Source: Candidatus Micrarchaeia archaeon (GTDB taxonomy: Archaea > Micrarchaeota > Micrarchaeia > Burarchaeales > JAVZCV01). Taken from it: a stretch of DNA of 64,000 nucleotides. Shown in pieces: positions 1 through 57,618 of this stretch (position 1 is its first letter; the number at the start of each line of letters is the position of its first letter). The position numbers were made by a program, and so were the translations under genes. The stretch covers positions 6,664 to 70,663 of the forward strand of contig JAVZCV010000002.1 of the NCBI GenBank assembly GCA_038874215.1, in the 5' to 3' direction. Below the pieces are notes generated by a model that did no database searches, was not told where the DNA came from, and saw only the letters and a list, made by a program, of their open reading frames with translations.

Positions 1-417
1 TCTCGCGCGCGGTGGCATAGTTGTTGGCTTTGTGAGAAAACTGCAAACTGAGGGTCTGGGGGGGCGAATAACAGTACAGGATATGAGAATATTTTCCTAT
101 TCCTTATGTACTGTTTCCTCAATAATCTCATGCCTTCTCCTTGGCATAATAAGCGATGGCGAGATGCGTGCAGGTATAAAATACATCCCTATTTTTGTGA
201 TTGTTTCGCTTTCCGTTTACTTCTACGCGGACCAATTTGCAACGCAGATGTTAAACGAGGCTTTTGGCGGTCTCCTTTCTCAGTAAAGCTACACGTTTAT
301 GGAAAAGTATAAAAAGGGGTTATTGGATAACCATATCATTGGCCGAAGAGCAGCGACCGTAGTTAAACATCTACACGTGGGGATTAGCGGTGGCGTTATA
401 TGTTTGATGGGAGCCGA

Positions 418-1002
418 ATGAAAACCAAGCGTGGTGCTGTTGGTATCGGAACTCTGATAATCTTCATAGCGATGGTCCTTGTGGCCGCAATCGCTGCCGC
501 AGTTCTCATCAACACCTCTGGTATTCTCCAACAAAGGTCCATGATGACTGGCAAAGAATCAATAGCGCAGGTTTCAACGAATATAAAAGTTTCTTCCATA
601 ATCGGCTTTACCGATGCCAATTTCAGCAATATAGAGAACCTTAGTATTTTCATAACGATGGCACCGGGTGCGCAGCCACTGAACCTAAAATATCTTATCG
701 TAGTGGTTGGAAACAACAACAACCAAACGACAAACCAATTCTCAGAAGAGCTCGAGAACAATACCTTCACCCCAAGAATAATACGCGACCCAAACAATCT
801 TTTCTCAACGACAAACCCAGTCATAGATAGTTCGTCTCTTGTTGAGCTTAAAATCACGCCAGCAAATATGTCACCAATCGTACTTTTGCCACCTCGCACC
901 ACACTTCATGTAGAACTAATCCCCGAGCATGGCTCGCCCGTTATCATAGAAACAAAAACCCCACAAACATACGCCACATCAATACAGCATCTCTATCCAT
1001 AG
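418..1002 (+). CDS. flaB: Archaellin (archaeal flagellin) FlaB paralog 1. Probable start at the second Met of the ORF ([11 protein letters not shown]...).
   Basis: The N-terminus MKTKRG|[34 protein letters not shown] is a classic class III (preflagellin) signal peptide plus the hydrophobic archaellin N-domain. The C-terminal block (...LPPRT.LH.ELIPEHG...YP) is conserved in the other two paralogs. There are many N-x-S/T sequons. A TATA-like ttatat lies about 25 nt upstream. Confidence 0.9.
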
Positions 1003-1015
1003 GAAAACCAACGAA

Positions 1016-1027
1016 AAGTTTATATAG
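1016..1027 (+). promoter_or_regulatory. Putative TATA box (aagtttatatag) for flaB2, about 55 nt upstream of the ATG. A ggaggga RBS lies at 1071..1077.
   Basis: An A/T-rich 8-mer is followed by a purine-rich SD-like sequence. Confidence 0.3.
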
Positions 1028-1081
1028 TGCGTAATGTTATTCCATTAGGAAAGCAATAAGAAAAAGGGAAGGAGGGAGAAC

Positions 1082-1675
1082 ATGCAATATAAAAAGGGTG
1101 CTGTTGGTATCGGAACTCTGATAATCTTCATAGCGATGGTCCTTGTGGCCGCAATCGCCGCAGCCGTTTTGATAAACGTTTCTGGCATACTGCAACAGAG
1201 GGCAATGTCCACGGGCAAAGAGGCAATAGCCCAAGTCTCATCAAACATAATAGTAACATCTATATCTGGGAAAACCAATACTAATAAGACGAACATAGAT
1301 AATCTCACCATAACCATTTCTGCGGCGGCAGGCGCTGGAAGGATAGACATCGGCAAAATGATTCTGAAGATTAGTAACGGGGATAACCAGACAGAGCAGA
1401 AATACAACGGGACCATAAACAATCCGGATGGTGCTCACTTCACCGCAACAGCTCTCAGAGACCCGACAGGCCTATTTACTAAAGAATTGCCCGTGATAGA
1501 CTCAAGCAGCTTAATTCAATTGCATGTTGTGCCAAGCAACGATACAACCCCTGTCTATCTGCCACCAAGAACGCCATTGCATATAGAGCTCATCCCAGAG
1601 CACGGTGCATCTGTTACGATAGATTTAGTAACGCCTTCAACATACCCAACTACCCTCCAGCAACTTTATCCATAA
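1082..1675 (+). CDS. flaB: Archaellin FlaB paralog 2
   Basis: The N-terminus MQYKKG|[34 protein letters not shown] follows the same pattern. A ggaggga RBS sits 4 nt before the ATG. The first ~150 nt of the ORF are nearly identical in nucleotide sequence to the other two paralogs. Confidence 0.9.
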   Translation: MQYKKGAVGIGTLIIFIAMVLVAAIAAAVLINVSGILQQRAMSTGKEAIAQVSSNIIVTSISGKTNTNKTNIDNLTITISAAAGAGRIDIGKMILKISNGDNQTEQKYNGTINNPDGAHFTATALRDPTGLFTKELPVIDSSSLIQLHVVPSNDTTPVYLPPRTPLHIELIPEHGASVTIDLVTPSTYPTTLQQLYP

Positions 1676-1685
1676 ACAGTCAGCC

Positions 1686-1702
1686 TTTTATTCTCCTTTT
1701 TT
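1686..1702 (+). terminator. Oligo-T tract (ccttttattctcctttttttaat) downstream of flaB2. It may act as a partial archaeal terminator.
   Basis: A T7 run sits within a pyrimidine-rich stretch 10-25 nt after the stop. Confidence 0.3.
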
Positions 1703-1723
1703 TAATCTATCTTAGGTAATCCC

Positions 1724-2311
1724 ATGGAAATCATAACTATCTTCAAGAAGGCACTTGGTTTACAAAAGGACGAAAAGGAAAGCGAAGAGAAAAAAGAGCA
1801 AGAGGCAAGTGCGAGTGAGATTGAGGTAGAGTTACCAGAAGGGGGCGGAATTTTTGATACGGAGGAGATAGACTCCTTGAAAAAAGAGCTCAGTGCAAGC
1901 GGTTCAAAAATAAGCGATCTGGAAGGAAAGCTGGTAAAGATAGAGGCCCAAAACCACCAAATCCAGAAAGAGATAGACGCTATAAAAAAACGCATGGATG
2001 AAATAGACGCAAGAATAATTGAAATGATGTCCATATACGAGGTAGTTTCAAATCAAATAAACCCCTTTGTAGGCGAAACTAAAAATGTGAGTGCAAACGT
2101 AATCGAAGTTAAGGCGGAGCTTGAAAAACTTCGTGAGCAGGTTTCTGTTCTTGCAGCAGATGTTCGTATAATGGCGAGAAGCAGGATAAATATAAGCAGG
2201 GTTATAGAAGAAGTTCTGAGCACGCCGCCAAAGAAAAAAACCGTTGATCTAAGTAAATTGATAAAAACCGCCATACAGGAGAAGAGGAGGGATAATCTTG
2301 GTGCAGAGTGA
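1724..2311 (+). CDS. flaC: FlaC/D/E-family archaellum accessory protein (FlaC-like coiled-coil protein)
   Basis: An acidic, heptad-rich coiled-coil precedes a conserved ...MMSIYEVVSNQINPF... segment typical of the FlaC/FlaD/FlaE domain. The gene lies directly downstream of the archaellin genes and overlaps the next gene by 14 nt. Confidence 0.6.
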   Translation: MEIITIFKKALGLQKDEKESEEKKEQEASASEIEVELPEGGGIFDTEEIDSLKKELSASGSKISDLEGKLVKIEAQNHQIQKEIDAIKKRMDEIDARIIEMMSIYEVVSNQINPFVGETKNVSANVIEVKAELEKLREQVSVLAADVRIMARSRINISRVIEEVLSTPPKKKTVDLSKLIKTAIQEKRRDNLGAE

Positions 2312-3002
2312 TGAACCAACTGGAAGAGGCAGTGAGCGCATTCTGACACCAGACGAAATAGAAGCAAAACTTTCGGTTTATCAATCACGCTTGCCCTCAA
2401 CTGTTATAGAAGAACTTCTTCGCTATCTGAAAACGATGAAGCTCAGCGAGTCAAAAGTTGATGAAATAATATCGCGTGTGGCATCAAAATACAGCGGCGA
2501 AGATGTATCCGAACAGATAGACTCCCTCTCATCAAAACTTGATACTCTGAGCGCAACAGTTTCACGCATGGTTGCAGCAATAGAGAAGGAGCGCTCATAT
2601 TTGGAAAGAGAACCAACCCCGCCCACCGAAGAAGTTCCAGAAGCCGAGCCAAAAACTCCCTTCCTTTCAAGCCTTAGGGAGGATGCAGTGACAAGAACGC
2701 TTTTTCTGAAATGGGTTGAGTTCCTTCTTTCACGTGTTGGGCATGAGCGGCTTGATGAGGCTCTAAACTTTTATGTTGACATAGGCTGGATAACTGAGGA
2801 AATAGCGATGAAAGCACTCGCATACTCCAAGGGAATATCAACAAAGAAAGGCAGAAAATCATCAAAATTAACGCCAGAGGACCATCTTCGTACCCTCATA
2901 TTTCTAGAGCGGTTAGGCGGTAAAAAAATAGACGAAAATCTAATAACGAAAGCAGAGCGGGAAATAACATACCTGCTTGAAAAAAGACTGCGGAGGCCTT
3001 GA
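2298..3002 (+). CDS. flaD: FlaD/E-family archaellum protein
   Basis: The C-terminal ...TRTLFLKWVEFLLSRVGHERLDEALNFYVDIGWITEEIA... matches the conserved FlaD/E C-terminal domain. The position (after flaC, before flaF/G) fits. Confidence 0.65.
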   Translation: MVQSDEPTGRGSERILTPDEIEAKLSVYQSRLPSTVIEELLRYLKTMKLSESKVDEIISRVASKYSGEDVSEQIDSLSSKLDTLSATVSRMVAAIEKERSYLEREPTPPTEEVPEAEPKTPFLSSLREDAVTRTLFLKWVEFLLSRVGHERLDEALNFYVDIGWITEEIAMKALAYSKGISTKKGRKSSKLTPEDHLRTLIFLERLGGKKIDENLITKAEREITYLLEKRLRRP

Positions 3003-3049
3003 ACGACATGCCTCTAAATATTTAAATAGAAAATAACCTATTAAGATGC

Positions 3050-3490
3050 ATGGGTCTGAGCACGGTAGCAACATTCGCACTTTTTGCACTCGCCTTAATC
3101 TCTATCGTACTTGTCTCCTACGCCATAATCAACGAATCTGCTAAGACAACCGTTGAAGCGATACGGGAGGAGCACAATCTTTTTAGGCTACGGCAGGCAA
3201 CAAGCATAAAAATAAATAACATAAGCGTTAGCGGTATTTGCACAAACTATAATCTCACCATATCCGCTACGAATATGGGCAGCATAGCGCTTGACAGGGC
3301 TAAGATGAACATACTTGATAACGGTGTTCTTATAAACAACACTATGAGGGGAGCGTGGGCACCAGGAAGTGATATATATCTCAACTACACAGAGATGAGT
3401 ACTATGGCAAGCAACCACACAATAAAAATAGTCACAGAAAATGGCGTTTCGGCAATCGGAAAGTATAACCTAACCGATTGCGAGATATAG
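3050..3490 (+). CDS. flaF: FlaF/FlaG-family archaellum stator-like protein (FlaF by position)
   Basis: A single N-terminal TM helix (LFALALISIVLVSYAI) is followed by an N-glycosylation-rich beta-rich domain of about 15 kDa. The gene order fits euryarchaeal flaF-flaG, and the gene overlaps its neighbour. Confidence 0.5.
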   Translation: MGLSTVATFALFALALISIVLVSYAIINESAKTTVEAIREEHNLFRLRQATSIKINNISVSGICTNYNLTISATNMGSIALDRAKMNILDNGVLINNTMRGAWAPGSDIYLNYTEMSTMASNHTIKIVTENGVSAIGKYNLTDCEI

Positions 3491-3963
3491 GTGAAAATTT
3501 GGGGTTTGACACGTCCTTCACGCATGCCATGTTTTTCATAGCGTCAATAGTTGTCGCAATCGCGGTTATATCTGTTCTGTCAACATCTATAAACACTATT
3601 AACAATAGCATAACAGTTCGTACCAACACTTTGGCTGCCCAGATAAGGACTGACATAACCATAATAAACGATCCCTGCTTTGTGAACCGTTCTATTTTTG
3701 TCAAGAATACTGGTAAAACAATATTGAACGCAAAGCTTGTAGACATATACGTTGATGGGAACTACACCCAGTATGATGCAGTAAGCATTCTGCGGAGTCC
3801 TACTGGTGTATGGGAGCCCTACAACGAAAGCAATGGATGGCGCCCGCAAGAGGTCGTGAATTTCTCTTTTTCGTATCCATTGCCTGCTGGAACGCATACG
3901 CTGTTCGTGAGAACGGAAAATGGCGTATACGATAAAATGCTATATACGAACGAGACATGCTAG
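3478..3963 (+). CDS. flaG: FlaF/FlaG-family archaellum protein (FlaG by position)
   Basis: An N-terminal TM helix (FFIASIVVAIAVISVL) precedes a beta-rich domain. The gene overlaps the flaF-like gene by 13 nt. Confidence 0.5.
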   Translation: MRDIGENLGFDTSFTHAMFFIASIVVAIAVISVLSTSINTINNSITVRTNTLAAQIRTDITIINDPCFVNRSIFVKNTGKTILNAKLVDIYVDGNYTQYDAVSILRSPTGVWEPYNESNGWRPQEVVNFSFSYPLPAGTHTLFVRTENGVYDKMLYTNETC

Positions 3964-4008
3964 ATGCGCACACCAACATTAAAAAACAACTAAAAGAAAC
4001 AATATACC

Positions 4009-4446
4009 ATGAGAGCACAGGTTTCCTTTGAATACATTTCGCTTTTCACGCTCCTACTTATTCCACTCGCAGTCGCTTTCCTCTATTCTTATGCCGCTGT
4101 TTTCCAAGCAACATCCGCTTACAAAATAGAAACAAGCCTTGATAAGCTTGCCCAAAATGCAGAAGAACTGTATGTGCAGGGGCCAGGCGCCAAATCCATA
4201 GTAACAATAGACCTGCCTAGCGGCATAAATGCCCATGGTTCATTTATAGGGAATTCTTCGGGCGGACCGGGTCGCTACATTATGCTTAATTTCTCGGGTT
4301 CAAATGCCGTGAGAATTACCCGCGCAACCGTCCAAGGATACTGGCCAAATACTACGGGTGGCTATGTTCGACCAGGCATACTGCAGATGAACCTAACCGT
4401 TGATAATAACAACATTGTTATTATGAGACCGTTGAGGAGTGGTTAA
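4009..4446 (+). CDS. Small class-III-signal-peptide (prepilin-like) protein, function unknown
   Basis: The N-terminus is MRA|QVSFEYISLFTLLLIPLAVAFL: a short basic leader, Q at +1, E at +5 and a hydrophobic helix. This is the type IV pilin / class III signal pattern. It is first of three consecutive such genes. Confidence 0.5.
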   Translation: MRAQVSFEYISLFTLLLIPLAVAFLYSYAAVFQATSAYKIETSLDKLAQNAEELYVQGPGAKSIVTIDLPSGINAHGSFIGNSSGGPGRYIMLNFSGSNAVRITRATVQGYWPNTTGGYVRPGILQMNLTVDNNNIVIMRPLRSG

Positions 4447-4827
4447 ATGCGGAGAGGACAGGTTGGTACCGAATACATAGCCGCATTTACTCTTTGGGTG
4501 ATGGTGTGCGTAATAATAAGCTACACCCTCTCTTCGTATTCCCTTAGCTTAAAGGAAAGTAGGGATACGAATGCCCGCAACACGATTCTTGGGCATTTTT
4601 TTTCTCTTGCCGATGATGCAACAGAACCCTCAACAAAAATCTCTGGCATTTTTTTAGAAGACTACAACATAACCTTCTTTGGTAATATTGGCAGCCTCTC
4701 TTCACGAAATAAGACCACACTCGGCTACACAACGGCAAATTTTACGTATTCTGACACAATAGGGCGTGGCGATACTTTCCTAATCAAAAATGTCAACGGC
4801 ACATTTCTCCTAATAAAAGAAGAATGA
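4447..4827 (+). CDS. Small class-III-signal-peptide (prepilin-like) protein
   Basis: The N-terminus is MRRG|QVGTEYIAAFTLWVMVCVII. The start lies 1 nt after the previous stop. Confidence 0.5.
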   Translation: MRRGQVGTEYIAAFTLWVMVCVIISYTLSSYSLSLKESRDTNARNTILGHFFSLADDATEPSTKISGIFLEDYNITFFGNIGSLSSRNKTTLGYTTANFTYSDTIGRGDTFLIKNVNGTFLLIKEE

Positions 4828-4834
4828 TGGTGTT

Positions 4835-5326
4835 ATGAAACGAGCGCAGATTGCCACTCTTGACATGCTGCTTGCGATTACGGTACTTCTACTCATCGTT
4901 TTTTCCTTCATCATGTTTCTTATTGTTGAGATGCATGAGAAAGATAAAAAAAGCCATGCAGATTCCGAAAGAATCCTTTCAGCATTGGTTGGAAGCTCTG
5001 GCAAACCGTCAAACTGGACGAGCACCCACTTCATAATCCCGGGGCTGAAATGCGGGCAAGGCGTCGTTTGCGCAAATAAAATCAAAGAGCTCAATAATTC
5101 ATGCGGTTCCTCATCGCAATCCGGCTATGTTTCTGTTAAAAAAAGCCTCGGCATACCCACACAATACTACCTGATAGGATACTATGCCAGCAATTCAGAA
5201 AGATGCCTGTGTGGTTGCGATCTTTCAGAAAGAAGAAATACTGCATTGGAAGTTTCAAAATCAAGCCTCCTCGTTTCATTGGACAATAATATAACACGTC
5301 TCTCAATCTATTTATGGAACAGATGA
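4835..5326 (+). CDS. Small class-III-signal-peptide (prepilin-like) protein
   Basis: The N-terminus is MKRA|QIATLDMLLAITVLLLIVF. A Cys-rich, N-x-S/T-rich C-domain follows. Its stop abuts the flaJ stop on the opposite strand. Confidence 0.5.
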   Translation: MKRAQIATLDMLLAITVLLLIVFSFIMFLIVEMHEKDKKSHADSERILSALVGSSGKPSNWTSTHFIIPGLKCGQGVVCANKIKELNNSCGSSSQSGYVSVKKSLGIPTQYYLIGYYASNSERCLCGCDLSERRNTALEVSKSSLLVSLDNNITRLSIYLWNR

Positions 5327-7000
5327 CTAAACTATTGTGGGTGCTGGCAGAACTGCTGCAAGCATCAAGTCTACAATCACTGCGGTTATCGCCCCCGTCC
5401 ACGTCAGACCCACGAAATGAAGAAGCGAGTTTGTCAGGTGTCCGCCATCTATTAATCTTATGGCAACCGCCGAGAGTAGCGCATTAGCAAGCAGTATTAT
5501 GAGCAGAAGAAGAGATATAACCTCAAGAGTATGGCTCTTTGGCAGCATTATCAGGCTCGTGAAAACTGACTCTGGTATCTCCATGCTCGTGTATAATTTA
5601 TTTAGGTAAACCAATATGCCATTTGATACGTATATGCAGAAGATTACGCCTGCCTGCAACCCATACATTATCCCTATGAAGCTCGTTGTGGCGTGATAAC
5701 GCTCACGCCTTAACATCTGTAATTTCATGAAATTTCTGCCTATCATCTGAGCTACTGCGTTTGGTTTTCCACCAAGCCCTATCGCCTCAATAAACATCTC
5801 GCTAAACCTGCTTATCAGATAGCTGCCTGCCTCTATTCTAAAAAAATGCCATGCTTGGAAAACATCTATATTCGTCTTGATACGCTCAAACAAGTTTTTT
5901 ATTATCGGCGTTAAAGGCCCGAAGTCATGATAAGCCAAAGATTTGAGAGCACCGCGCATAACTCCGCCGCGTGCAGCCGTTTCAAGCCCAAGCGAAATTA
6001 TGAATTCAACGAAAAACATGTCCCTGCGTTTTATTAATTCCTCTATACTCCTTGCAACATAACCGACACCAACAAGCGGCGTTATTGTCAGCGCAGCCAT
6101 TATCGGTGCTGGCAGTCCCCTCCAATATGTGTTGATAATGAGCGATACAAAAACTATCCCCACAAGAGATACCGCAAAGGCAGGAAGAATCTGCCTCCTC
6201 ATCTCGTTGTTTGCGTATTCGGTGTACCATATTCTATCTTCTGGCAATATACTCTTTATATAATAAACAACCCCCAACTCTGCAACAGCATAGAGAATCA
6301 TAACGAAACCTATTAGGACTGTGGGGTCAGTACCGCTTATATACGGAATTACGATTGCAAACGAAACGAGAAAAACAAGCGTTATCACCATAGATGTATA
6401 AACCTCTTTCAATACATCAACATCATAGAGCGCACCACGGTATCTTATTGAATAATCGCTTAGGACGATCTCCTGCTCCTCGCCAAGGAAAACTTCTATG
6501 TTCTCCCCAGCTTCCAATGCGTTTGCAAACCTATCCAGAAAATCTGCAAATATTATACTCGGGGTTTGCCTTGCCTCTATCCTGCACGCATCTGCGAGTG
6601 TCGTCCTCCATACAGAGAAGCGCAGGTATATGTTCCTGCACGAATCAGCAAGAGCGCCGTACTCCTTTCTAGCTGCCATAACTCTAAAAAGCTCCCCCGT
6701 TGGTACCTCACATGTAGAAAGTGCACCCATCTGCGTTACAAAAAAATGTATGTTGTTTTCAATCTCCGTCTTAACATTTTCTGCCAAAAGATAAGGGTAG
6801 ACAAGCACAAGCGCCACTACGAGAAAAGGAAAAGCAAAAAGGAAGACGAGAAAAATGCCCGTGAAAAGTTGTGGGACAAGAAAATAAACCACTACTGAAG
6901 TTAGAAGAGATAAAACAAAAATAGGCAAAACAACCTGTGTGAGGTAGTCATAAAGGGTATACCCAACATTTTTCACAAGGTCGGCATACCCCTCTACCAT
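5327..7000 (-). CDS. flaJ: Archaellum assembly polytopic membrane protein FlaJ (TadB/C-like)
   Basis: 557 aa with about 9 predicted TM segments and two cytoplasmic domains. It lies directly downstream of, and 2 nt from, flaI on the same strand. Size and topology match FlaJ. Confidence 0.8.
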   Translation of the reverse strand: MVEGYADLVKNVGYTLYDYLTQVVLPIFVLSLLTSVVVYFLVPQLFTGIFLVFLFAFPFLVVALVLVYPYLLAENVKTEIENNIHFFVTQMGALSTCEVPTGELFRVMAARKEYGALADSCRNIYLRFSVWRTTLADACRIEARQTPSIIFADFLDRFANALEAGENIEVFLGEEQEIVLSDYSIRYRGALYDVDVLKEVYTSMVITLVFLVSFAIVIPYISGTDPTVLIGFVMILYAVAELGVVYYIKSILPEDRIWYTEYANNEMRRQILPAFAVSLVGIVFVSLIINTYWRGLPAPIMAALTITPLVGVGYVARSIEELIKRRDMFFVEFIISLGLETAARGGVMRGALKSLAYHDFGPLTPIIKNLFERIKTNIDVFQAWHFFRIEAGSYLISRFSEMFIEAIGLGGKPNAVAQMIGRNFMKLQMLRRERYHATTSFIGIMYGLQAGVIFCIYVSNGILVYLNKLYTSMEIPESVFTSLIMLPKSHTLEVISLLLLIILLANALLSAVAIRLIDGGHLTNSLLHFVGLTWTGAITAVIVDLMLAAVLPAPTIV

Positions 7001-7002
7001 CT

Positions 7003-8640
7003 CTACACCGTTGGGAGGGAGTCAATACCCTCTTCATAGTATCTCACAAACATTTTGAGAACACTGTCGTAGTCAAATATTTTCTTTGCATACATTGCAT
7101 CAAGCACTCTTTTTCTCTTCTCAAGTTCTATGTAAACCATTCTCTTCTCAGCATAACCCGCCATCGGGGCTATTTTCTCTTCAAGTATGTAGCTGTTGTG
7201 CAGTCCAAGGAACCTATGTTCATCCCTGCTTCCATCCCATTCAAACATCTGCTTCGTTATAACACCCCCCGCCTCCTCCGAATAGCCCTCTATTTCCTCT
7301 ATTGAAATACACCTTCTCTGGAACCTGCCTTTTATATAAACTGCCTGCAGGATTGCAACAACATGCAGGTTATCCATAAAAGTTATTGGTATGTTAATAG
7401 GATTGCCAACAAGCCTCTGTATAAGTCTCCTGACGCTTCCTGCATGGAATGTGGCAAGAACAGAGTGGCCTGTTTGCATCGCTTGAAATGCGACAGAGCC
7501 TTCAACACCCCTTATTTCCCCAACAATTATGTAATTGGGCCTTGAACGCAGGGCTGCTTTTAATATAGAGAACATATCGACTCTTGATTCTTCTGGTCCT
7601 GTAGTCCTCGTTACAAGCCTCTGCCATATTTTATGCGGCGGCCTAACCTCTGGCGTATCCTCAGCGCTCAATATCTTCAAGTCTGGTCTTATCATTGGTA
7701 AACATGCGTTAAGAAATGTAGTCTTGCCGCTTGCCGTTTCTCCTGAGAAGAATATATTCATGCCGTACTCTAAGCATATCCATAGGTATGCTGCCATCTC
7801 AGTGCTTATTGTACCAAGCTTTACCAAGTCCATTATGCTCATTGGGACTGCGGCAAATTTCCTAACCGTAAAACTCGGGCCTCTTATGCTTATATCATCA
7901 GCATATATTATGTTTATCCTGCTTCCATCAGGAAGCACGGAGTCCGCTATCGGCCTTGCAACACTGACAGGATGCCCTATTCTCTCGCTCAGGTTGCGGA
8001 GATATTCCCCAAGGTATTGGAGATTATCAAACTTAAGGTTTGTTATAAGCGGGCCGAATATCTTATGCACCACGCCTATCTCGTTCGTGCCAACTACGTG
8101 TATGTCTTCAAGGTTCCAGTCATCTACAAGTGGTTGTATAAGCGCATGCCCTATTATGTCTCTTTTCAGCTGATAAATAAACTTCACGTACTCTTCATCT
8201 GTTACATAAACCTTCTTCGTTCCCCAGTCTCTAAAAGTCAGCCTTGTGCGCTTAACGCTTTTTTCATATAGCCTTAAAAGAGTCTTTTCAAGTTCTTTCT
8301 CGTCCTCAGGAACTTCCTCTCTCGGTGCATTCTCAAGTATTGCATTCAGAATGCGTCCATACTTCGTTCTCTCAGCTTGTGTTAGTTGGGGTTGTATAAC
8401 CTCATATCTTCTAATGTGTTTATCTATAAAAATATGAACGAAAACATGTTCGCCCGCAGGATATATTATATTAACGAACGGTTCGTCCCCAAGCTCTCTC
8501 GTGAGCCTCTCGTAAAACCTCGGAATGCGCCCCGTCTCCTTCTTCAACCTATCAATATACTGCCGCAGGTGTGGCTCCTTTTTTATTGCCTCATCAAATT
8601 CCACAACCCCACCTAAACATACGAGATGCTGTCCTCGCAT
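7003..8640 (-). CDS. flaI: Archaellum ATPase FlaI (VirB11/GspE secretion ATPase superfamily)
   Basis: Walker A is SGETASGKTTFLNA, Walker B/Asp box is ...ILSAED.... The 545-aa size, the FlaI-type N-terminal domain and the adjacency to flaJ all fit. Confidence 0.9.
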   Translation of the reverse strand: MRGQHLVCLGGVVEFDEAIKKEPHLRQYIDRLKKETGRIPRFYERLTRELGDEPFVNIIYPAGEHVFVHIFIDKHIRRYEVIQPQLTQAERTKYGRILNAILENAPREEVPEDEKELEKTLLRLYEKSVKRTRLTFRDWGTKKVYVTDEEYVKFIYQLKRDIIGHALIQPLVDDWNLEDIHVVGTNEIGVVHKIFGPLITNLKFDNLQYLGEYLRNLSERIGHPVSVARPIADSVLPDGSRINIIYADDISIRGPSFTVRKFAAVPMSIMDLVKLGTISTEMAAYLWICLEYGMNIFFSGETASGKTTFLNACLPMIRPDLKILSAEDTPEVRPPHKIWQRLVTRTTGPEESRVDMFSILKAALRSRPNYIIVGEIRGVEGSVAFQAMQTGHSVLATFHAGSVRRLIQRLVGNPINIPITFMDNLHVVAILQAVYIKGRFQRRCISIEEIEGYSEEAGGVITKQMFEWDGSRDEHRFLGLHNSYILEEKIAPMAGYAEKRMVYIELEKRKRVLDAMYAKKIFDYDSVLKMFVRYYEEGIDSLPTV

Positions 8641-9491
8641 TCATAATGCATTACCGTAATGCCCTTCAAATCCCTTTCAAGTTTCTCTGCGAGGTTTTGC
8701 ATTATCAGTCTTTCAAGCCTGCTTCTCTCTATATCTATTAGTGAGATGCCAAGATCATCTGCATAGCGTGCCACCGTCTCCGTCATCTCAGAAGAAACAA
8801 CAACCTGCGCCCCTTTCAGATACATCTCTTCTATAACATCAATATACTTCAGCCCTGGTCCTATGAAGCACCCAACCTTTGTAATGGGCTTGCTTGATTC
8901 TACATCGCCCGTTATTCTAATGACATCGCACAAATACGAAGTTTTTAGCGTGCTTACTATATTCCCTAGCGTTGTTTCCGCAATTTCCCCAATTCTACCG
9001 CATTTGAATTTTTCAACAACGTGCATACCAAGCACCTTAGCCAAAGCATCCGCAGTGCCCCCCTCAGCATCATCCAGATTTGAGTGCATAACATAAACAC
9101 ACACATCTTTTGCTGCGAGCCTCTTAATCCTCTTCGCATTTGGGGGTTTTTCAAAAAATGAAATGCCAGGGAAAATCGCCCTCTTTTCTTCAAAAAACGG
9201 GTATTCATGAAGAACGAACATATCTATGTCTGCTTCCACTTCCTCTGGCGTCTTTTTTCTTAGAGCAAAACGTGCATGCAAAGGGCTTATCTTTCTGGGC
9301 TTTATCTCCTGCGTTACTTCAAGAAGGTTTGCCTGCTCCATTACATAATCTGTTATTGCCCAAGCAACTCCCACCTTTTTGACTACCTTGTTAGGGTCGC
9401 CGAAAACAAGGCCTACCGGGTCGTCCTCAAACGCCAATGATAGTGGTGCTATCTTCTCAAGTCGCCCAACTATCTCCGATGCTAGCATCAA
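8613..9491 (-). CDS. Nif3/YqfO-family (DUF34) dinuclear metal-centre protein
   Basis: The N-terminus ...IVGRLEKIAPLSLAFEDDPVGLVFGD... and the internal ...VYVMHSNLDDAEGGTADALAKVLG... resemble conserved Nif3 blocks. The stop overlaps the flaI start by 28 nt. Confidence 0.55.
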   Translation of the reverse strand: MMLASEIVGRLEKIAPLSLAFEDDPVGLVFGDPNKVVKKVGVAWAITDYVMEQANLLEVTQEIKPRKISPLHARFALRKKTPEEVEADIDMFVLHEYPFFEEKRAIFPGISFFEKPPNAKRIKRLAAKDVCVYVMHSNLDDAEGGTADALAKVLGMHVVEKFKCGRIGEIAETTLGNIVSTLKTSYLCDVIRITGDVESSKPITKVGCFIGPGLKYIDVIEEMYLKGAQVVVSSEMTETVARYADDLGISLIDIERSRLERLIMQNLAEKLERDLKGITVMHYECEDSISYV

Positions 9492-9591
9492 ATCACTCTC
9501 TTCTCACCATTATATACCTGCCTTTAATTTTAAACCTATTGTATGTTGAAACAACAAATCTATTTTAAGGTGTTATGAGAAAGGTCTTTTC

Positions 9592-10278
9592 ATGAGAAAA
9601 AAAATAGCATTCATGCTCGCTGTTTTTTTATTCATGTCCGTATCAGCGGCAGAAGTAAAACTATCAAATACTAGGATAGTCTGTTGCGATAGATGGACAT
9701 CTCTGGTGAACGTCAGCGAAGATGCCAAACCCCTGCGTGCGCGGGTTATGCTTGTTGCCCTATCCCCCACAGAAATCCGCCTCAATGCTACTTTCTTCAC
9801 AGACTCTAATGGCATCGCACAGGTTTCATATACCCCGTCTGCGCCAGGCGAGATTGTTTTAATAAAAGTTTACAAAAATGAGAGTCCTATCTATGAGGCC
9901 TTTATTGAGGTTTCTTCAAACCCAAACCAGACCCCCAAGACCATTTTAGGCATTCCATTAGAAATTTTTCCGTTTGACGTTATAGCGCTTATCTACAATC
10001 TTTCATTAATAACGATTGTCCTATCAGCATTCTTACTGGTTCTACTTTTTGTCCACGTATACTACAAGCGTCGGGGGATAGATTTGTTTGATATTTTTAG
10101 GCGAAAAATATCCCTGCTCCTATTCTGGATTAAAGGAAGATTGCTTCCAATCTACGCCACGTTTAAAAAACTCGGCAAAAAACAAGAACAAGACCTAAGC
10201 TCCATTAGAATGCGCAGGGCAGTTCTTTCAACTAAGCAAGAAAAGAAAATAGGTGGGAACACAGGCAAAAACCCCTAA
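9592..10278 (+). CDS. Hypothetical secreted/membrane-anchored protein
   Basis: An N-terminal signal peptide (MRKKIAFMLAVFLFMSVSAAEV) and a C-terminal TM helix plus basic tail are present. I recognise no motif. Confidence 0.4.
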   Translation: MRKKIAFMLAVFLFMSVSAAEVKLSNTRIVCCDRWTSLVNVSEDAKPLRARVMLVALSPTEIRLNATFFTDSNGIAQVSYTPSAPGEIVLIKVYKNESPIYEAFIEVSSNPNQTPKTILGIPLEIFPFDVIALIYNLSLITIVLSAFLLVLLFVHVYYKRRGIDLFDIFRRKISLLLFWIKGRLLPIYATFKKLGKKQEQDLSSIRMRRAVLSTKQEKKIGGNTGKNP

Positions 10279-10313
10279 GCAATATGCTTTAATATCATAT
10301 TCTATATTCTTTT

Positions 10314-11009
10314 ATGGCACTTCCGCTTTCATTTAAGATAGAAGTTGACGATTTGGACAAGCGCCTTGGAGGCGGAATACCAAAAGGTTCGCTTGTGCTG
10401 ATAGACGGCGAGCACGGGACTGGCAAGAGCGTTTTAGTCCAGAGGCTTGCATACGGATTTCTCCAAAATGGGTACTCCGTTACTTTTATCTCAACACAAC
10501 TCACAACCAAGGATTTCATAAGCCAGATGTATTCACTTGGCTATGATATTCTGAAATACCTCTCAAAAAACAAACTGCTCTTCATCTCTGTTTTTCCACT
10601 TTTGGGCGAGCACAAAAAAGAAGACGTCTTCTTTAAAAAGCTCGTAGAAACGCAGGAACTTTACAAAAACGACATCATTTTCATAGATACGCTCTCCTCA
10701 ATAATACGATACTCCTTGGATTTGGGAAAAATAGACGATTTAATCGGTTTCTTTAAAAGGCTGACGGGCATAGGTAAAACCATATTCGTAACGCTCGGAG
10801 AAGGAGACCTTGACTCCATGATAGTGGGCGAACTCGTATCAAGTGCTGACATCCACATAACCATGAAGGCGAAAACATTCGGCGAGGATATAAAGCACAT
10901 GCTCGTGATTAACAAGTATGCAGGAGCCCTTCAGCCATACAGCACAATGACTGGCTTCCGCATAGTCCCGAAAATAGGTTTCGTAATAGAAATCGCAACA
11001 GTTGCTTAA
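10314..11009 (+). CDS. flaH: Archaellum protein FlaH (KaiC/RecA-like ATPase)
   Basis: Walker A is GEHGTGKS. The fold is a single KaiC-like domain of about 230 aa, which is typical of FlaH. It lies next to other fla genes. Confidence 0.8.
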   Translation: MALPLSFKIEVDDLDKRLGGGIPKGSLVLIDGEHGTGKSVLVQRLAYGFLQNGYSVTFISTQLTTKDFISQMYSLGYDILKYLSKNKLLFISVFPLLGEHKKEDVFFKKLVETQELYKNDIIFIDTLSSIIRYSLDLGKIDDLIGFFKRLTGIGKTIFVTLGEGDLDSMIVGELVSSADIHITMKAKTFGEDIKHMLVINKYAGALQPYSTMTGFRIVPKIGFVIEIATVA

Positions 11010-11133
11010 TCGCTGCAAAATCAGCGAAACATTTATAAATAGCCTAATAGAAATAAAAACTGCCACGTGTGGGAGCAAGGCGACGAATTATGGCAATAAG
11101 CATCCTACTCGTAGGTATATAGGAGGTGCAGCA

Positions 11134-11724
11134 ATGTCCGAGAAAAAAGGCCAAGGTGCTTTTGAATACCTTATGAGCTATGGTTGGGCTATCCTTATCG
11201 TGATCGTGCTCGGTATAGTGCTCTGGAACCTTGGTGTTTTCAACCCAAACACAACCCCAGAAGCAAGCGGCTTCACTATCCTCAGACCAGGAACATGGGA
11301 GTTCACAGGAGCAGCATCGCAAACGGGCTGGGCAGAAGCAGAAGGTGACACTTCGGTGACATATGTTGCAATCGCATTCCAGAATGTGGCAGGAATAGAC
11401 TTGATACTTAGAGTTAATGAAACCAATTCTTCTATACAATTCAAAAAACCAGGTTCTGGAATATGTCAATTTCATACAAATCCAGGTTCAGATATTTTTG
11501 TGAACGCTACGGATGAACAGGGGAATAGGCTTGTAATAACCGACAACTCAGTCGCTGTGCCTGCAGGCTCCACAGTAATACTACGAGGATGGCTTAAAAG
11601 CGATCAGGGGGGTTGTGGGGGATTAAGCAAAGGTCCTTATAGGTATTCGGTGATTACCGTTTCAACAGATGCATTTAACATCTCTCATACGGATACAGGC
11701 TTCATAACTGGGAGGTATACCTAA
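11134..11724 (+). CDS. Class-III-signal-peptide type IV pilin-like protein (probable start at the internal Met)
   Basis: The N-terminus is MSEKKG|QGAFEYLMSYGWAILIVIVLGIVLW, the canonical archaeal pilin motif (QxxxEY plus hydrophobic helix). A ggaggtg RBS lies 6 nt upstream. A Cys/Gly-rich C-domain follows. Confidence 0.6.
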   Translation: MSEKKGQGAFEYLMSYGWAILIVIVLGIVLWNLGVFNPNTTPEASGFTILRPGTWEFTGAASQTGWAEAEGDTSVTYVAIAFQNVAGIDLILRVNETNSSIQFKKPGSGICQFHTNPGSDIFVNATDEQGNRLVITDNSVAVPAGSTVILRGWLKSDQGGCGGLSKGPYRYSVITVSTDAFNISHTDTGFITGRYT

Positions 11725-11747
11725 TAAAATTTTAAGAGGTGCTACGC

Positions 11748-12347
11748 ATGAGATTTGATAAAAATACCAAACGTGGTGCGGTTGGTATCGGAACTCTGAT
11801 AATCTTCATAGCGATGGTCCTTGTGGCCGCAATCGCCGCAGCCGTTTTGATAAACGTTTCTGGCATACTGCAACAAAGGGCGATGACGACGGGCAAAGAG
11901 TCAATAGCGCAGGTTTCATCCAACCTGATAGTAACAGGCATAACGGGCTATACTGATGATAACAGAACAAACATAGAGAACATAAGTATCTATATAACTG
12001 CGGCATCTGGTGCGGGGAGGCTTGACCTACGTTATCTCATAATGAAAGTAGGCAACAACATTAACGAGACACCGCAACGCTACTCAAATGTCTCATCGGG
12101 TGATAGCAATTTCACTGCGCAAGTGCTCAGAGATCCTGCAAACTTATTCACACCGAATAACCCGGTGATAGACTCTACATCTTTAATAGAGCTTAAAATA
12201 ATACCAAGCAACGATACAACTTTTGTTTCCTTGCCCCCACGGTCTCCGTTTCACATAGAGCTTATCCCAGAAAGGGGCGCACCACTCGTGATAGATACGA
12301 TGACACCAAGCACTTATGCAACCAACATTCAACACCTCTACCCATAG
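11748..12347 (+). CDS. flaB: Archaellin FlaB paralog 3
   Basis: The N-terminus is M.FDKNTKRG|[35 protein letters not shown] gaggtg RBS precedes it. The 5' ~150 nt are nearly identical to flaB2. It has the conserved C-terminal block. Confidence 0.9.
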   Translation: MRFDKNTKRGAVGIGTLIIFIAMVLVAAIAAAVLINVSGILQQRAMTTGKESIAQVSSNLIVTGITGYTDDNRTNIENISIYITAASGAGRLDLRYLIMKVGNNINETPQRYSNVSSGDSNFTAQVLRDPANLFTPNNPVIDSTSLIELKIIPSNDTTFVSLPPRSPFHIELIPERGAPLVIDTMTPSTYATNIQHLYP

Positions 12348-40786: not shown

Positions 40787-41530
40787 TCACCTAAGTCGCT
40801 CAAAGCTCTCTGTTTCGTATACCTGTTCGTTTGGATATATCGCGATGCCTTTTTCAGTAAACCTCATAGGGCATATTCTCTGCTCAAAATTCGTGCCCCT
40901 TAACTTTATCACTTCAAGCGCCCTCTGCCTTACATTTCCCTTCCGAAGATTATACAGATATATGAGACCATCCGTAAGCGTTTCCACCCCAAAGCGTGCG
41001 CGGGGTTGGCCCGCTTTGGTAGTGCTTTCAGAGGTCATCACAATAGTGCAATTCCACCTCCTCAATTTTCCAAGAAGCCTAACGAGCTCCTCCCTCCTTC
41101 TGTGTTCTGTCTCATAAAGTAGAGCAAGGGATGTTACCGAGTCTATCGCTACCCTTCTAACGCCGTGCTCGTCTATCGCATCCTTAATGAGTGTCTCCTG
41201 GTTTACGAACCTATCAACTTCCTGTGGCGGATACTCATAAAAAAGCAACTTCTTCTGCTTTTCAAGCTCATGAAGGTTCCACCCATAGCCTTTAAGGTTG
41301 TCAAAAAGGTAATCCCTCTCTTCCTCAAAAGATACGTAGAGGCCTGGCTCGTTGTATCTTGTTATGCCCGCCCATATGAACTGCATGGCAAACGTTGTTT
41401 TGCCGCAACCACTATCCCCCGTAATCGTTATTATGCTACCTCTCTTGAAGCCCCCACTTATTATTTCGTCAAGCCCAGGTATCCCTGTTTTTACCCTCTC
41501 ATCACCCACCATCATACCACCTATCCTCAT
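40787..41530 (-). CDS. KaiC/RecA-like ATPase (single KaiC domain)
   Basis: ...GIPGLDEIISGGFKRGSIITITGDSGCGKTTFAMQF... is Walker A in a KaiC-type N-terminus. Confidence 0.75.
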   Translation of the reverse strand: MRIGGMMVGDERVKTGIPGLDEIISGGFKRGSIITITGDSGCGKTTFAMQFIWAGITRYNEPGLYVSFEEERDYLFDNLKGYGWNLHELEKQKKLLFYEYPPQEVDRFVNQETLIKDAIDEHGVRRVAIDSVTSLALLYETEHRRREELVRLLGKLRRWNCTIVMTSESTTKAGQPRARFGVETLTDGLIYLYNLRKGNVRQRALEVIKLRGTNFEQRICPMRFTEKGIAIYPNEQVYETESFERLR

Positions 41531-48297: not shown

Positions 48298-49404
48298 ATG
48301 AAGATAGCCGCAATCGGCCATTGCCTGCTTGCGCGGAGGCAATACGGGATATTTAACGAAATGCGCGAGCACGAAATTGAGCTTTTCGTCCCAAAAGCGT
48401 GGCCTGGCGTCCTTGAAAGGCCGGTAATAGCAGGAAAAGTCCATAGGATGAGGCTTCTTAACCATGGCAACACCTACAATTACATCATGCCCGGCATTAT
48501 GCCAGCCCTCGCAGCTTCAAAGCCTGATTTAGTATACACAAACGCTGAGCCATGGAGCAACATGTGCTTCTATGCACAACTCTGCTCAAAAATGCTGAAA
48601 ATACCGCATGTTTTTTTCACATGGGAAAATACAAGCTGGCCCACAAGAGGGTTTCAGAAGAGAAAAGAATGCTTCGTGGTTTCATGCGCTGCGGGTGCGG
48701 TGGCAGGAAACAAGGATGCAGAGAACAGGCTTAAGATCCTTAGGCCTGACCTCCCAGTCAAGAGAATGCCAAATGGCGGAATAGACACGAAACTTTTCAG
48801 GCATTCAAAGAAAAGCCTAAGACACGAGCTGGGGCTTGAAGATAAGAAGGTTGTTCTATTTGTAGGAAGGTTTGTGAAGGAAAAGGGCATTTGGTTTATC
48901 ATTGATAGCATTGAACGCGTAAGGCAGGAAATAAAGGATGCCCATTTTGTTTTCGCCGGTAAGGGTCCCGAGAAGCGGGCAATGATGCTCCGCATACTGA
49001 ATTCACCATTCAGGGACGCATGCACGCTTCTCAGCTGGAGGCCATACGAGGAACTACCACTTGTATACAACAGCGCAGACATTTTCGTGTACCCAAGCTA
49101 TTCCACACCGCACTGGAGAGAGCAGTTCGGCTTTGCAATACTTGAAGCGATGGCATGCGGTCTCCCCGTTATAACAACGAGATGCGGCGCTATAGAAGAA
49201 GTTGCGGGCGATGCCGCAGAGTATGTGCCAGAAAGGGATTCAAACGCCCTTGCAAAAAAAATAGTGGAGTTGCTCTGCGAAGAAGGAAAAAGAAAATCAC
49301 TTGCCGCAAAGGGCCGAGAAAGAGCACAAGTTTACGATTTAAAGAGAGTTGCACGCATGCACAAAGAATTCTTTGAGGAAATAGCAGGCAGGGGTCATAT
49401 ATAG
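48298..49404 (+). CDS. Glycosyltransferase family 4
   Basis: C-terminal GT-B signature ...EQFGFAILEAMACGLPVITT.... Confidence 0.85.
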   Translation: MKIAAIGHCLLARRQYGIFNEMREHEIELFVPKAWPGVLERPVIAGKVHRMRLLNHGNTYNYIMPGIMPALAASKPDLVYTNAEPWSNMCFYAQLCSKMLKIPHVFFTWENTSWPTRGFQKRKECFVVSCAAGAVAGNKDAENRLKILRPDLPVKRMPNGGIDTKLFRHSKKSLRHELGLEDKKVVLFVGRFVKEKGIWFIIDSIERVRQEIKDAHFVFAGKGPEKRAMMLRILNSPFRDACTLLSWRPYEELPLVYNSADIFVYPSYSTPHWREQFGFAILEAMACGLPVITTRCGAIEEVAGDAAEYVPERDSNALAKKIVELLCEEGKRKSLAAKGRERAQVYDLKRVARMHKEFFEEIAGRGHI

Positions 49405-51525: not shown

Positions 51526-52178
51526 ATGTTGGTGCGTTGCCGATGAAATACTATGAATACTATTGGACTGCAATGAAACCGCATTGCGAGATTACGCACG
51601 CAAAGAAGGATGCGTTCACCCTTCTTAAAGGCAAAAAAGTACTTGATGTCGGCTGTGGGGACGGAGAACACTACGGGAAGGCTCTCGCAAAGGAATGCCA
51701 GCTTTATGGGATAGATATCTCAAACGAGGCCGTGTCTATTGCAAGAAAAAACGGCATGGATGCCACTGTTGGGGAGGCAGACAACCTTCCTTTCGGAGAT
51801 GGGGAATTTGACGCGGTCTTGTTTATTGACGTTCTTGAACACCTTTTCAATCCAGAAGGTGCCCTCCACGAGGCAAACCGCGTTTTGAAAAACAACGGTT
51901 TTATTATAGTATCCCTGCCGAATGCCGCTTACATCCGCGAGAGGCTTTCTTTCCTATTTGGGGATTTCAACCCGCGAGGCTCGCCCCACACTTCTTTTGA
52001 TTCGCCTTGGGCTGACCCCCACATACGCTTCTTCACCAAGAAAACGGTTATGGCACTTCTCCAAAAAACAGGCTTCAAAGTCCGCGTTTTTATAGGGGAG
52101 GCAGGCATACCAATACTATCGCATTTCTTCCCTTCTCTCTTTGCCTCGGATTTCCTCATAATCGCAGAAAAGCAGTGA
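51522..52178 (+). CDS. Class I SAM-dependent methyltransferase
   Basis: Motif I VLDVGCGDGEH, post-I acidic DIS, motif II FDAVLFIDVLEH. Confidence 0.8.
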   Translation: MNVGALPMKYYEYYWTAMKPHCEITHAKKDAFTLLKGKKVLDVGCGDGEHYGKALAKECQLYGIDISNEAVSIARKNGMDATVGEADNLPFGDGEFDAVLFIDVLEHLFNPEGALHEANRVLKNNGFIIVSLPNAAYIRERLSFLFGDFNPRGSPHTSFDSPWADPHIRFFTKKTVMALLQKTGFKVRVFIGEAGIPILSHFFPSLFASDFLIIAEKQ

Positions 52179-52182
52179 TTCC

Positions 52183-54106: not shown

Positions 54107-54110
54107 GCTA

Positions 54111-56748: not shown

Positions 56749-57618
56749 TTGGAGTCTATGGAACATGAGTTAATAAGGATTTCACTTGCTGTGGCGGCGT
56801 GTGCGCTCGGGGCATACTACGATATTAAAAACAACAGGAATGTCCCAAACTGGGTTACATACTCCTTCGTTGCTATCGGCGTTTTTATAAACGCCATCCC
56901 CTTTGATCTTTCCTTTATCCTTCCTGTTTTTGCTGTTTCTGCCCTTATTTTCATTGTCGGCTATTTGTTCTACAGGCTTGGGCAGATAGGGGGAGCAGAC
57001 GTTCTTTTATTTACCGGCGTGTCCCTCGCACTTCCGTATCCCCCCTCGCACCTCTCTTCTACCCTTTTTGAATATCCCTTCATACTTCCTGTCTTCGTTG
57101 TTTCTGGTGTTCTGTTCAGCATTGCAATGCTCATAGCATACGTGCCGCGTATTTTTGCAGATGTGCGTGCGCGAAAAGTAAAAACCAGCCCTTATGGCGT
57201 CTTACTCTCGCTCATCATGCTCCTTGCATACACCGCAGTCATCTATATGCTGGCCCAGATACTGCCATTGCGACCCCTCCAAATTCTCATTTTGGTTATC
57301 GTGGTGTTTTCTGCGGTTTTCTTCATGCTTTTCAGGGAGCACATAACCGAAAATTATGTAATAGAGTACGTCTCCCTTGAAGAAGTTGATGAGGAGGATG
57401 TGCTTGCGCTTGAAAAAATTGACAGCAAAACAATATCCCAATACAGCCTTAAAAGACTTTTGACTGCTTCTGAAATAGAGAGGCTCAAAAGAACCCCAGT
57501 CGCAAAGATGAGACTTCCCGTGTGTAAAAACATGCCCATGTTTGCCCCATACCTACTTCTATCCCTCTTAATAAACCTGGTTATTGACCCATCCCTTCTG
57601 TTCGCCCCTGCATTTTAA
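56749..57618 (+). CDS. flaK: Class III signal peptidase (prepilin/preflagellin peptidase FlaK/PibD, A24 family)
   Basis: The first catalytic-Asp block is ...ALGAYYDIKNNRNVPNW... and the second is ...LGQIGGADVLLF... (GxGDxK-like). It is a polytopic membrane protein with an archaeal C-terminal extension. A TATA-like catataaa and a ggag RBS lie upstream. Confidence 0.75.
   Translation: MESMEHELIRISLAVAACALGAYYDIKNNRNVPNWVTYSFVAIGVFINAIPFDLSFILPVFAVSALIFIVGYLFYRLGQIGGADVLLFTGVSLALPYPPSHLSSTLFEYPFILPVFVVSGVLFSIAMLIAYVPRIFADVRARKVKTSPYGVLLSLIMLLAYTAVIYMLAQILPLRPLQILILVIVVFSAVFFMLFREHITENYVIEYVSLEEVDEEDVLALEKIDSKTISQYSLKRLLTASEIERLKRTPVAKMRLPVCKNMPMFAPYLLLSLLINLVIDPSLLFAPAF

Follow-up and report, generated by a model that had tools for sequence, protein, structure and literature searches.

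We analysed a 64,000-nucleotide stretch (hereafter the window) of contig JAVZCV010000002.1, from a metagenome-assembled genome (MAG) deposited as Candidatus Micrarchaeia archaeon (GCA_038874215.1, positions 6,664 to 70,663 of the forward strand), which carries an island of archaellum (arl, or fla) genes between positions 400 and 12,347. A listing of open reading frames (ORFs) with translations recovered, at its coordinates, every one of the 16 ORFs that the original prediction had placed in this island. They fall into three modules. Module 1 lies on the + strand and reads arlB1-arlB2-arlC-arlDE-arlF-arlG-P1-P2-P3, P1 to P3 being pilin-like genes. Module 2, nif3-arlI-arlJ, lies on the - strand and converges on module 1. 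Module 3 is again on the + strand, diverges from module 2 across a 100-bp spacer, and reads sec-arlH-P4-arlB3, where sec encodes a secreted single-pass membrane protein and P4 is a further pilin-like gene. None of the eleven arl ORFs, which comprise three archaellins and eight accessory genes, is truncated. The exact ArlI, P4 and P1 proteins are deposited in NCBI under this MAG, on a contig of 117,623 bp. Loci and contigs used for comparison are given below as L numbers, and proteins from them as P numbers with four digits.

The archaellin genes are arlB1 (400..1002, +, with an internal Met at 418 as a possible alternative start), arlB2 (1082..1675, +) and arlB3 (11739..12347, +, with a more likely start at the ATG at 11748 behind a GAGGTG site). 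All three products, as predicted, match PF01917, at 118–121 bits (ArlB1 121, ArlB2 119, ArlB3 118; cut-off 29.5), and ArlB1 scores 164 bits on NF006325, under the cut-off of 210. Each carries a class III signal peptide with the archaellin leader KRG/ (the slash marks the point between residues -1 and +1) and six to seven N-glycosylation sequons, six of them in ArlB1. The three paralogues are 57–66% identical, ArlB2 being 57% identical to ArlB1 and 66% to ArlB3, and their N- and C-termini are conserved. The best relatives of ArlB3 are the archaellins of L172 (243 bits).

Downstream of the first two archaellin genes, the coiled-coil accessory protein ArlC (1724..2311, +) matches PF05377 (FlaC_arch) at 60.2 bits (cut-off 27.8), and its homologues occupy the same position in L164, L167 and L169. 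ArlD/E (2298..3002, +) matches PF04659 (Arch_fla_DE) at 80.5 bits (cut-off 21). The two putative stator proteins are more divergent. ArlF (3050..3490, +), which has an archaellin-like N-terminus, matches a single NCBIfam model, that for ArlF, over the full profile at 58.3 bits; ArlG (3478..3963, +) matches the NCBIfam ArlG model over its full length at 84.7 bits and PF01917 at 58.5 bits (cut-off 29.5). Both NCBIfam scores lie under the equivalog cut-off of 110. We keep these calls because the sub-threshold matches are full length and consistent in position, and because phmmer linked the proteins to the genes at the F position (E-values 1e-25 to 1e-29) and G position (1e-29 to 1e-32) of the canonical loci L167 and L169.

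The motor genes gave the clearest assignments. ArlI (7003..8640, -), the hexameric motor/assembly ATPase, scores 689.5 bits on the archaellum FlaI model NF058587 (cut-off 550), and its Walker A motif, GETASGKT at residue 300, is intact. Its next-best model is BasE, at 206 bits against a cut-off of 1000. The membrane platform ArlJ (5327..7000, -) scores 575.8 bits on NF004704 (ArlJ/FlaJ; cut-off 550), also matches PF00482, and reaches 25.5 bits on UpsF against a cut-off of 400. With archaellum models above cut-off and pilus models far below theirs, we rejected an Aap-, Ups- or bindosome-type pilus identity for this pair, in agreement with its original assignment to the archaellum. ArlH (10314..11009, +), a KaiC-like ATP-binding regulator, passes two models with a cut-off of 215 (NF006320, 254.6 bits; NF052589, 242.2 bits) and has an intact Walker A motif, GEHGTGKS. 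Pfam and NCBIfam profiles thus agree with the whole predicted series FlaB, C, D/E, F, G, H, I and J, with ArlF and ArlG below the equivalog level. Elsewhere in the window, a stand-alone single-domain KaiC-like ATPase (40787-41530, -; PF06745, 199 bits) differs from ArlH, whose model gives it 50 bits.

A putative class III signal (prepilin/prearchaellin) peptidase is encoded 44 kb away from the island (56749..57618, +). It matches PF01478 (Peptidase_A24) at 43.9 bits (cut-off 26.5) and neither of the NCBIfam subtypes FlaK and EppA. Directly upstream of its gene, at 48298-56634, lie genes for apparent glycosyltransferases, an epimerase, a methyltransferase and a radical-SAM enzyme, judged from their translations; this block may make the glycan that would be attached to the sequon-rich archaellins and pilins.

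We consider it likely that the window encodes a complete, probably functional archaellum gene set of the Arl1 (euryarchaeal) type, in a modular arrangement typical of its lineage. Its mode of action is predicted from established knowledge of the archaellum family. The A24 peptidase would trim the short class III leaders, and ArlI and ArlJ would build the archaellin filament and then rotate it through ATP hydrolysis. ArlH would modulate ArlI, ArlF and ArlG would anchor the motor as a stator, and ArlC with ArlD/E would form the cytoplasmic ring or switch.

The junctions and spacing of the island suggest several transcription units. Modules 1 and 2 meet tail to tail exactly as had been described, the P3 stop (TGA, 5324-5326) abutting the arlJ stop (TAG, CTA on the + strand, 5327-5329). 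Because this junction has no oligo-T, the nearest runs lying at 5895-5900 (+ strand) and 5138-5144 (- strand), the 3' ends of the convergent units may overlap. Neighbouring genes of a module overlap or lie 0 to 79 bp apart, and P1–P3, which sit tightly behind arlG, probably share its transcript. TATA-like boxes and T-runs were located by eye or by regular expression, and promoter function is putative. Such boxes lie near 305 (before arlB1), at about 1018 (before arlB2) and near 11033 (before P4), as well as before arlF. The divergent spacer between nif3 and sec (9492..9591) likewise holds TATA-like A/T-rich elements, facing both ways. A run of seven T residues (1697-1703) follows the arlB2 stop, and a short T-rich stretch follows arlB3. 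The probable start of arlI is the GTG at 8604, chosen from alignment with L002 and from an AGGTGG ribosome-binding site 8 nt upstream. This site overlaps the TAG stop of nif3, which suggests that nif3 and arlI are translationally coupled.

arlH had been described as displaced, 1.3 kb to the right. It does stand in a separate unit to the right of nif3, and the distance needs correcting: it lies 823 bp from the nif3 start and 1.67 kb from the called start of arlI.

An unusual gene order in a MAG raises the question of whether the contig is a chimera that fuses two archaellum loci or two organisms. Apart from the source of the sequence, a convergent junction with no spacer and duplicated archaellin genes, which can mislead assemblers, would fit such an artefact. 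The Logan contig L001, assembled independently from run SRR30574052, corresponds to window positions 1178-11190 and covers arlB2 through P4 in the same order. It has no gaps and 16 mismatches in 10,013 bases (99.84% identity), and as a second strain it keeps every ORF within its span intact. In addition, GC content is even over the island (0.41–0.44), the junction of nif3 with sec-arlH is also found in L164, and that of arlH-P4-arlB is also found in L172. We therefore rejected misassembly, given the identical order in L001, and regard an assembly or binning artefact of any kind as extremely improbable.

We compared the gene order with 160 ArlI loci, 80 of them taken from GTDB species genomes and the other 80 from Joint Genome Institute metagenomes; their ORFs were labelled by the window proteins. 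Of the 142 non-window loci with room upstream of arlI, a set that is not de-replicated, about 140 have arlH as the immediate upstream neighbour of arlI. A distance rule flagged six loci as missing arlH, three of which were false negatives of that rule. The exceptions to arlH-arlI adjacency are L002, the closest relative, and L017, from Candidatus Syntrophoarchaeum. Separation of arlH from arlI is thus seldom seen, and the organisation of the window is non-canonical, as had been proposed. A colinear arlH-arlI-arlJ run is typical of archaellum loci, if not strictly defining; in the window nif3 precedes arlI, in the operon position that arlH normally has. In L017 (9887-13342, Candidatus Syntrophoarchaeum butanivorans) we observed arlI-arlJ, and no arlH or other arl homologue was detected within 10 kb.

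The island had also been called rearranged and expanded. Comparison with relatives upholds rearrangement in relation to the canonical order and indicates that it is in part neither local nor recent. The closest GTDB representative, Candidatus Micrarchaeota archaeon PPR_0038, has an ArlI 62% identical to that of the window. Related ArlI proteins form a clade (P0002-P0011) at 58–64% identity, and all others are at most 56% identical. The unit nif3-arlI-arlJ is conserved in the genomes of six relatives (L002, L162/L163, L166, L164/L165, L171), whose ArlI proteins, where measured, share about 58–62% identity with that of the window. In L002, L162/L163 and L166 it stands on the + strand beside a CTP synthase gene on the - strand, and no further arl gene lies within 10 kb. 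L164/L165 carry arlDE-arlC-arlB and, further along the same strand, arlH and a gene X, with a divergent nif3-arlI-arlI'-arlJ unit that includes a 59-amino-acid ORF after nif3. In L171 two TadC-like genes and then nif3-arlI-arlJ follow one another on a single strand. All five ArlI proteins tested from L162, L164, L166 and L171 pass the archaellum model, at 698–720 bits. Module 3 has its counterpart in L172, a contig of the assembly that also contains L166 (GCA_043814255.1). L172 reads archaellin-arlH-P4 homologue-archaellin, matching arlH-P4-arlB3 in the window. From the metagenome scan came just one further close relative, the partial L141.

Modules 2 and 3 are thus lineage-conserved Micrarchaeota units, located on different contigs in some relatives. 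Since they recur, the layout of the window is partly conserved in the lineage and no one-off scramble. The nearest canonical relatives, L167-L169 (ArlI 56% identical), have EarA beside B-C-DE-F-G-H-I-J-B, with CheA nearby, and the break-up that yields nif3-arlI-arlJ is therefore specific to the Micrarchaeota-labelled clade at 58–64%. With modules 2 and 3 conserved in this way, the island would reflect a break-up of the arl operon long ago in this lineage, rather than a recent local inversion. The archaellum genes of the lineage occur as modules, possibly dispersed, three of which happen to adjoin in the window.

Several features of these related loci concern the modules themselves. The CTP synthase gene that is the divergent neighbour of nif3 in L002, L162 and L166 lies at 60501-62123 (-) in the window, about 51 kb from nif3, which suggests that the arl modules have changed position with respect to this anchor gene. 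L164 (10001-13346, equivalent to L165 8266-11611) has tandem full-length arlI paralogues, P0010 and P0011, between nif3 and arlJ, the first of them preceded by the 59-amino-acid ORF. Each paralogue scores about 719 bits, enough to pass the archaellum FlaI model. The pair directly upstream of nif3-arlI-arlJ in L171 (5829-7825) consists of half-size TadC/T2SSF-like genes (310–352 amino acids each), and L172 has a similar pair (1686-3700) 4–5 kb ahead of its archaellin-arlH-P4 module. Such pairs may encode a second platform for type IV filaments, associated with the arl modules. Near the CTP synthase gene and nif3-arlI-arlJ, L002 (4322-6134, -) also carries three tandem paralogous small membrane-anchored proteins (161–228 amino acids) that share a C-terminal '...YYFE.EGP...G.(I/V)(Y/L)VKA(G/Q)' domain and match no known family. 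In L162 (1-4860) and L166 (1854-5723), several tubulin-family (PF00091) genes are clustered a few kb from nif3-arlI-arlJ.

The gene in the usual place of arlH, nif3 (8613..9491, -), encodes a divergent NIF3/DUF34-like protein. It matches PF01784 at 119 bits (cut-off 23.4), reaches 87.5 bits on the TIGR00486 equivalog (under the cut-off of 130.55), and matches solved NIF3 proteins in the PDB weakly, at 37–62 bits. NIF3/DUF34 proteins have what we take to be five conserved dinuclear-metal ligands (His-His, Asp, His, Glu), with positions assumed from E. coli YbgI. In the six clade members H95-E96 (in 'HEYPFF'), D140 and E260 are invariant; canonical NIF3 proteins presumably have HH at the 'HEYPFF' site. 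The window protein has 'ER' where 2gx8 has 'GH', a column that varies within the clade. NIF3 family members form ring-shaped oligomers. The gene may be either a housekeeping NIF3 held in synteny or a partner of the motor. One speculative extension is that this divergent protein is a dedicated partner of ArlI and ArlJ in Micrarchaeota, with nif3-arlI-arlJ serving both the archaellins and P4-type or P1–P3-type pilins, as a motor shared with, or becoming, an adhesion or host-contact pilus of these symbiotic DPANN archaea. Conserved gene order makes this possible, and we think it quite unlikely.

The secreted protein that had been noted beside arlH is encoded by sec (9592..10278, +). It consists of a signal peptide, a beta-rich ectodomain, a transmembrane helix and a basic cytoplasmic tail, and matches no Pfam or NCBIfam family. 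Its position is also conserved in one relative, L164, where the weak homologue X (26% identity over 103 amino acids, pairwise E-value 7e-9) lies in the same place beside arlH, divergent from nif3.

The expansion of the island by four pilin-like genes, as originally described, proved uneven and involves at least two unrelated families: P1 and P4 have family support, P2 shows a faint link to the P1 family, and P2 and P3 count as pilin-like chiefly through their N-terminal motif. Our working definition of a class III signal was a short basic leader ending in Gly or Ala (-1), followed by Gln at +1, Glu at +5 and some 20 residues of hydrophobic helix. P1 (4009..4446, +; MRA/QVSFEYISL), P2 (4447..4827, +; MRRG/QVGTEY) and P4 (11134..11724, +; KG/QGAFEY) show this pattern. 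P3 (4835..5326, +; MKRA/QIATLD), which has six Cys residues, lacks the Glu at +5, and its N-terminal motif is the basis for calling it a possible class III signal protein. None of the four matches PF04021 (Class_IIIsignal) directly in Pfam, and P2 and P3 match no Pfam or NCBIfam family. The P2 start codon immediately follows the P1 stop.

P1 falls within the broad family of class III signal proteins. An exhaustive search found 126 representatives, whereas a word-seeded search recovered P1 itself alone, and 12 of 42 aligned relatives match PF04021. Its AlphaFold2 model (predicted local distance difference test score, pLDDT, 96) has a 56-residue N-terminal helix and a small beta domain, and matches solved structures weakly. 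P2 matches the P1-family hidden Markov model (HMM) weakly (E-value 1.7e-4, 21 bits). Among about 170 other fetched loci, BLAST, phmmer and the family HMM found no homologue of P1–P3 inside or directly beside arl genes, and P3 had no homologue except in L001, from the same organism. Other matches to the P1-family HMM were class III-like ORFs of about 55 amino acids several kb from arlJ in Thermococcus-labelled loci, and weak, scattered hits also occurred in L020, L042 and L172. Two of the four close P1 homologues, P0150 and P0152 on Logan contigs, have an N-terminal extension of 105–110 amino acids (a transmembrane helix and a coiled coil) before the class III motif, which is either a run-on of the gene call or a real fusion. 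P1–P4 would be extra class III signal substrates, with a putative role in the filament.

P4, with the leader KG/QGAFEYLMSYGWAILIV, has 28 homologues, and all the named ones come from Micrarchaeota or Anstonellales. The N-terminus KGQGAFEY.xSYGWA is invariant in this family. The AlphaFold2 model (pLDDT 83) shows a helix and a beta sandwich, and Foldseek matched it to the S. acidocaldarius Aap pilin (8q30, E-value 8.5e-4) and a P. furiosus flagellin (5o4u, E-value 7e-3). This is a generic match to a helix plus immunoglobulin-like sandwich, as in Aap pilin, archaellin and chaperone-usher pilins, which does not distinguish a pilin from a minor archaellin. Given its restriction to Micrarchaeota and its pilin-like N-terminus and fold, we classify P4 as a putative lineage-specific type IV pilin. 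The family is multi-copy. A paralogue stands beside arlH and arlB in two genomes (the window and L172), copies lie near arlI and arlJ in L164 and L171, and in L170, L173 and L174 the family has its own locus, free of arl genes, beside a TATA-binding protein gene. This Anstonellales-type locus (L170 4172-8337; L174 525-5425; L173 192-1425) consists of the TATA-binding protein gene, then two to four tandem P4-family genes and a gene of about 445 amino acids.

The distribution of P4 bears on whether ArlI and ArlJ serve an adhesion pilus made of P4-type or P1–P3-type pilins, instead of or besides an archaellum, with nif3-arlI-arlJ as a shared or repurposed motor core. Both the P4-family pilins near arlI and arlJ and the separate P4 loci fit this idea. 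The core pair would also be transcribed apart from arlH and the structural genes, it often stands alone within ±10 kb (L002, L162, L166), and Micrarchaeota have been reported with FlaIJK and without an archaellum (PMC8561730, PMC8784108). Against this, ArlI and ArlJ score above archaellum-specific cut-offs and far under those of pilus models, and all the archaellum-specific partners are present and intact in the window. Furthermore, the assembly with the apparently lone nif3-arlI-arlJ of L166 has archaellins and arlH on L172, so such lone pairs may reflect dispersal, and the separate split TadC-like pair of L171 and L172 could serve the pilins. On balance we consider use of the motor for a pilus unlikely, and favour the archaellum.

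Several points weigh against a complete and functional archaellum. Expression and motility are predicted from the genes themselves, and the transcription units from spacing and A/T-rich motifs. ArlF (58.3 bits) and ArlG (84.7 bits) fall below the NCBI equivalog cut-off of 110. Module 3 is backed by one other genome, as is the sec-arlH pair, and the Micrarchaeia label of the MAG is that of its depositor. ArlCDE are usually linked to Che systems, and reading the translations revealed no che genes in the window; no EarA regulator was seen near the island. Cultivated Micrarchaeota have been described either with flaI/flaJ alone (PMC8784108) or as having a 'type IV pilus (FlaIJK) but not archaellum' (PMC8561730). 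The system may be a relic or have been repurposed.

As a relic, it would be decaying, with no working archaellum, towards the flaI/flaJ-only state of other Micrarchaeota. The reductive genomes of DPANN archaea, the fragmented operon, the divergence of ArlF and ArlG and the lack of visible che genes would all be expected from such decay. The full-length state of all 11 arl ORFs would not, nor would the intact Walker A motifs, leaders and tight spacing, the termini that the archaellin paralogues conserve at 57–66% identity, or the preservation in the 99.84%-identical second strain (L001) of every ORF covered. We judge decay very unlikely, and a working archaellum remains our preferred interpretation.

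Compared with the Arl1 clusters of Methanococcus maripaludis and Pyrococcus furiosus (arlB(n)-C-D-E-F-G-H-I-J; PMC10117864), the island has the same set of components, several archaellins and a peptidase outside the cluster, and it retains the order B-B-C-DE-F-G. It differs in splitting arlH-arlI-arlJ: arlI-arlJ is inverted behind a NIF3-like gene, and arlH stands apart, sharing a divergent unit with a pilin gene and the third archaellin. It also has three class III signal genes after arlG, and neither EarA nor che genes were seen nearby. Non-traditional arl arrangements have already been noted for Nanoarchaeota (PMC10117864), which are likewise DPANN archaea with archaellum genes outside one colinear operon, in a different phylum. 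In halobacteria archaellin genes are oriented away from the arl accessory group (PMC10117864). Archaellum genes are thus in oppositely oriented units there as well. The split in the window parts arlH from arlI.

The FlaIJ(K) loci reported for Micrarchaeota (PMC8561730, PMC8784108) probably contain the same arlI-arlJ pair, in view of the lone nif3-arlI-arlJ that L002, L162 and L166 show within 10 kb; in the window the pair sits within a full arl set. The lone-locus ATPases of L162 (P0004) and L166 (P0008) reach the cut-off of the archaellum-specific FlaI model. P1 and, to a lesser degree, P2 resemble the Epd-type or 'system 1' class III pilins (PF04021; bioRxiv 10.64898/2026.04.22.720090; PMC4858521) in their Q-x-S-x-E N-terminus and their build of a helix plus a beta domain. 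They differ in that P1–P3 are inside an archaellum operon after arlG, with no dedicated ATPase, TadC or EppA-type peptidase adjoining. A 2026 preprint on archaeal type IV filament systems makes no mention of NIF3 or Micrarchaeota, and a DPANN-wide comparison lists archaellum genes for Nanoarchaeota and Woesearchaeota alone (PMC8407392).

Elsewhere in the window, a 171-amino-acid protein (62173-62688, +) consists of three tandem two-helix membrane units of about 57 amino acids, the first two copies being near-identical (EKTRNILTVI.GIILGT.CGYLFYSTYRIDLPLSVFIGLSVATVFSLTLY). An Rfam scan of the window gave no match.

These results leave the understanding of how an archaellum works unchanged. They bear on its distribution and genetic organisation. 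A genome deposited as Micrarchaeia has the whole Arl1 set, whereas the papers cited here on Micrarchaeota describe remnants only (PMC8784108, PMC8561730). The flaI/flaJ pairs of L162 and L166, which appear to stand alone, are of the archaellum type and preceded by a NIF3-like gene, and in at least one of these genomes archaellins and arlH are located on a different contig. Surveys that rely on colinear clusters may therefore under-call archaella in this host-associated lineage, and possible free-swimming stages may have been missed as well. The lineage is a natural case of arlH genetically uncoupled from arlI, and it provides candidate accessory genes in the NIF3-like gene, P4, P1–P3 and the gene for the secreted protein beside arlH.

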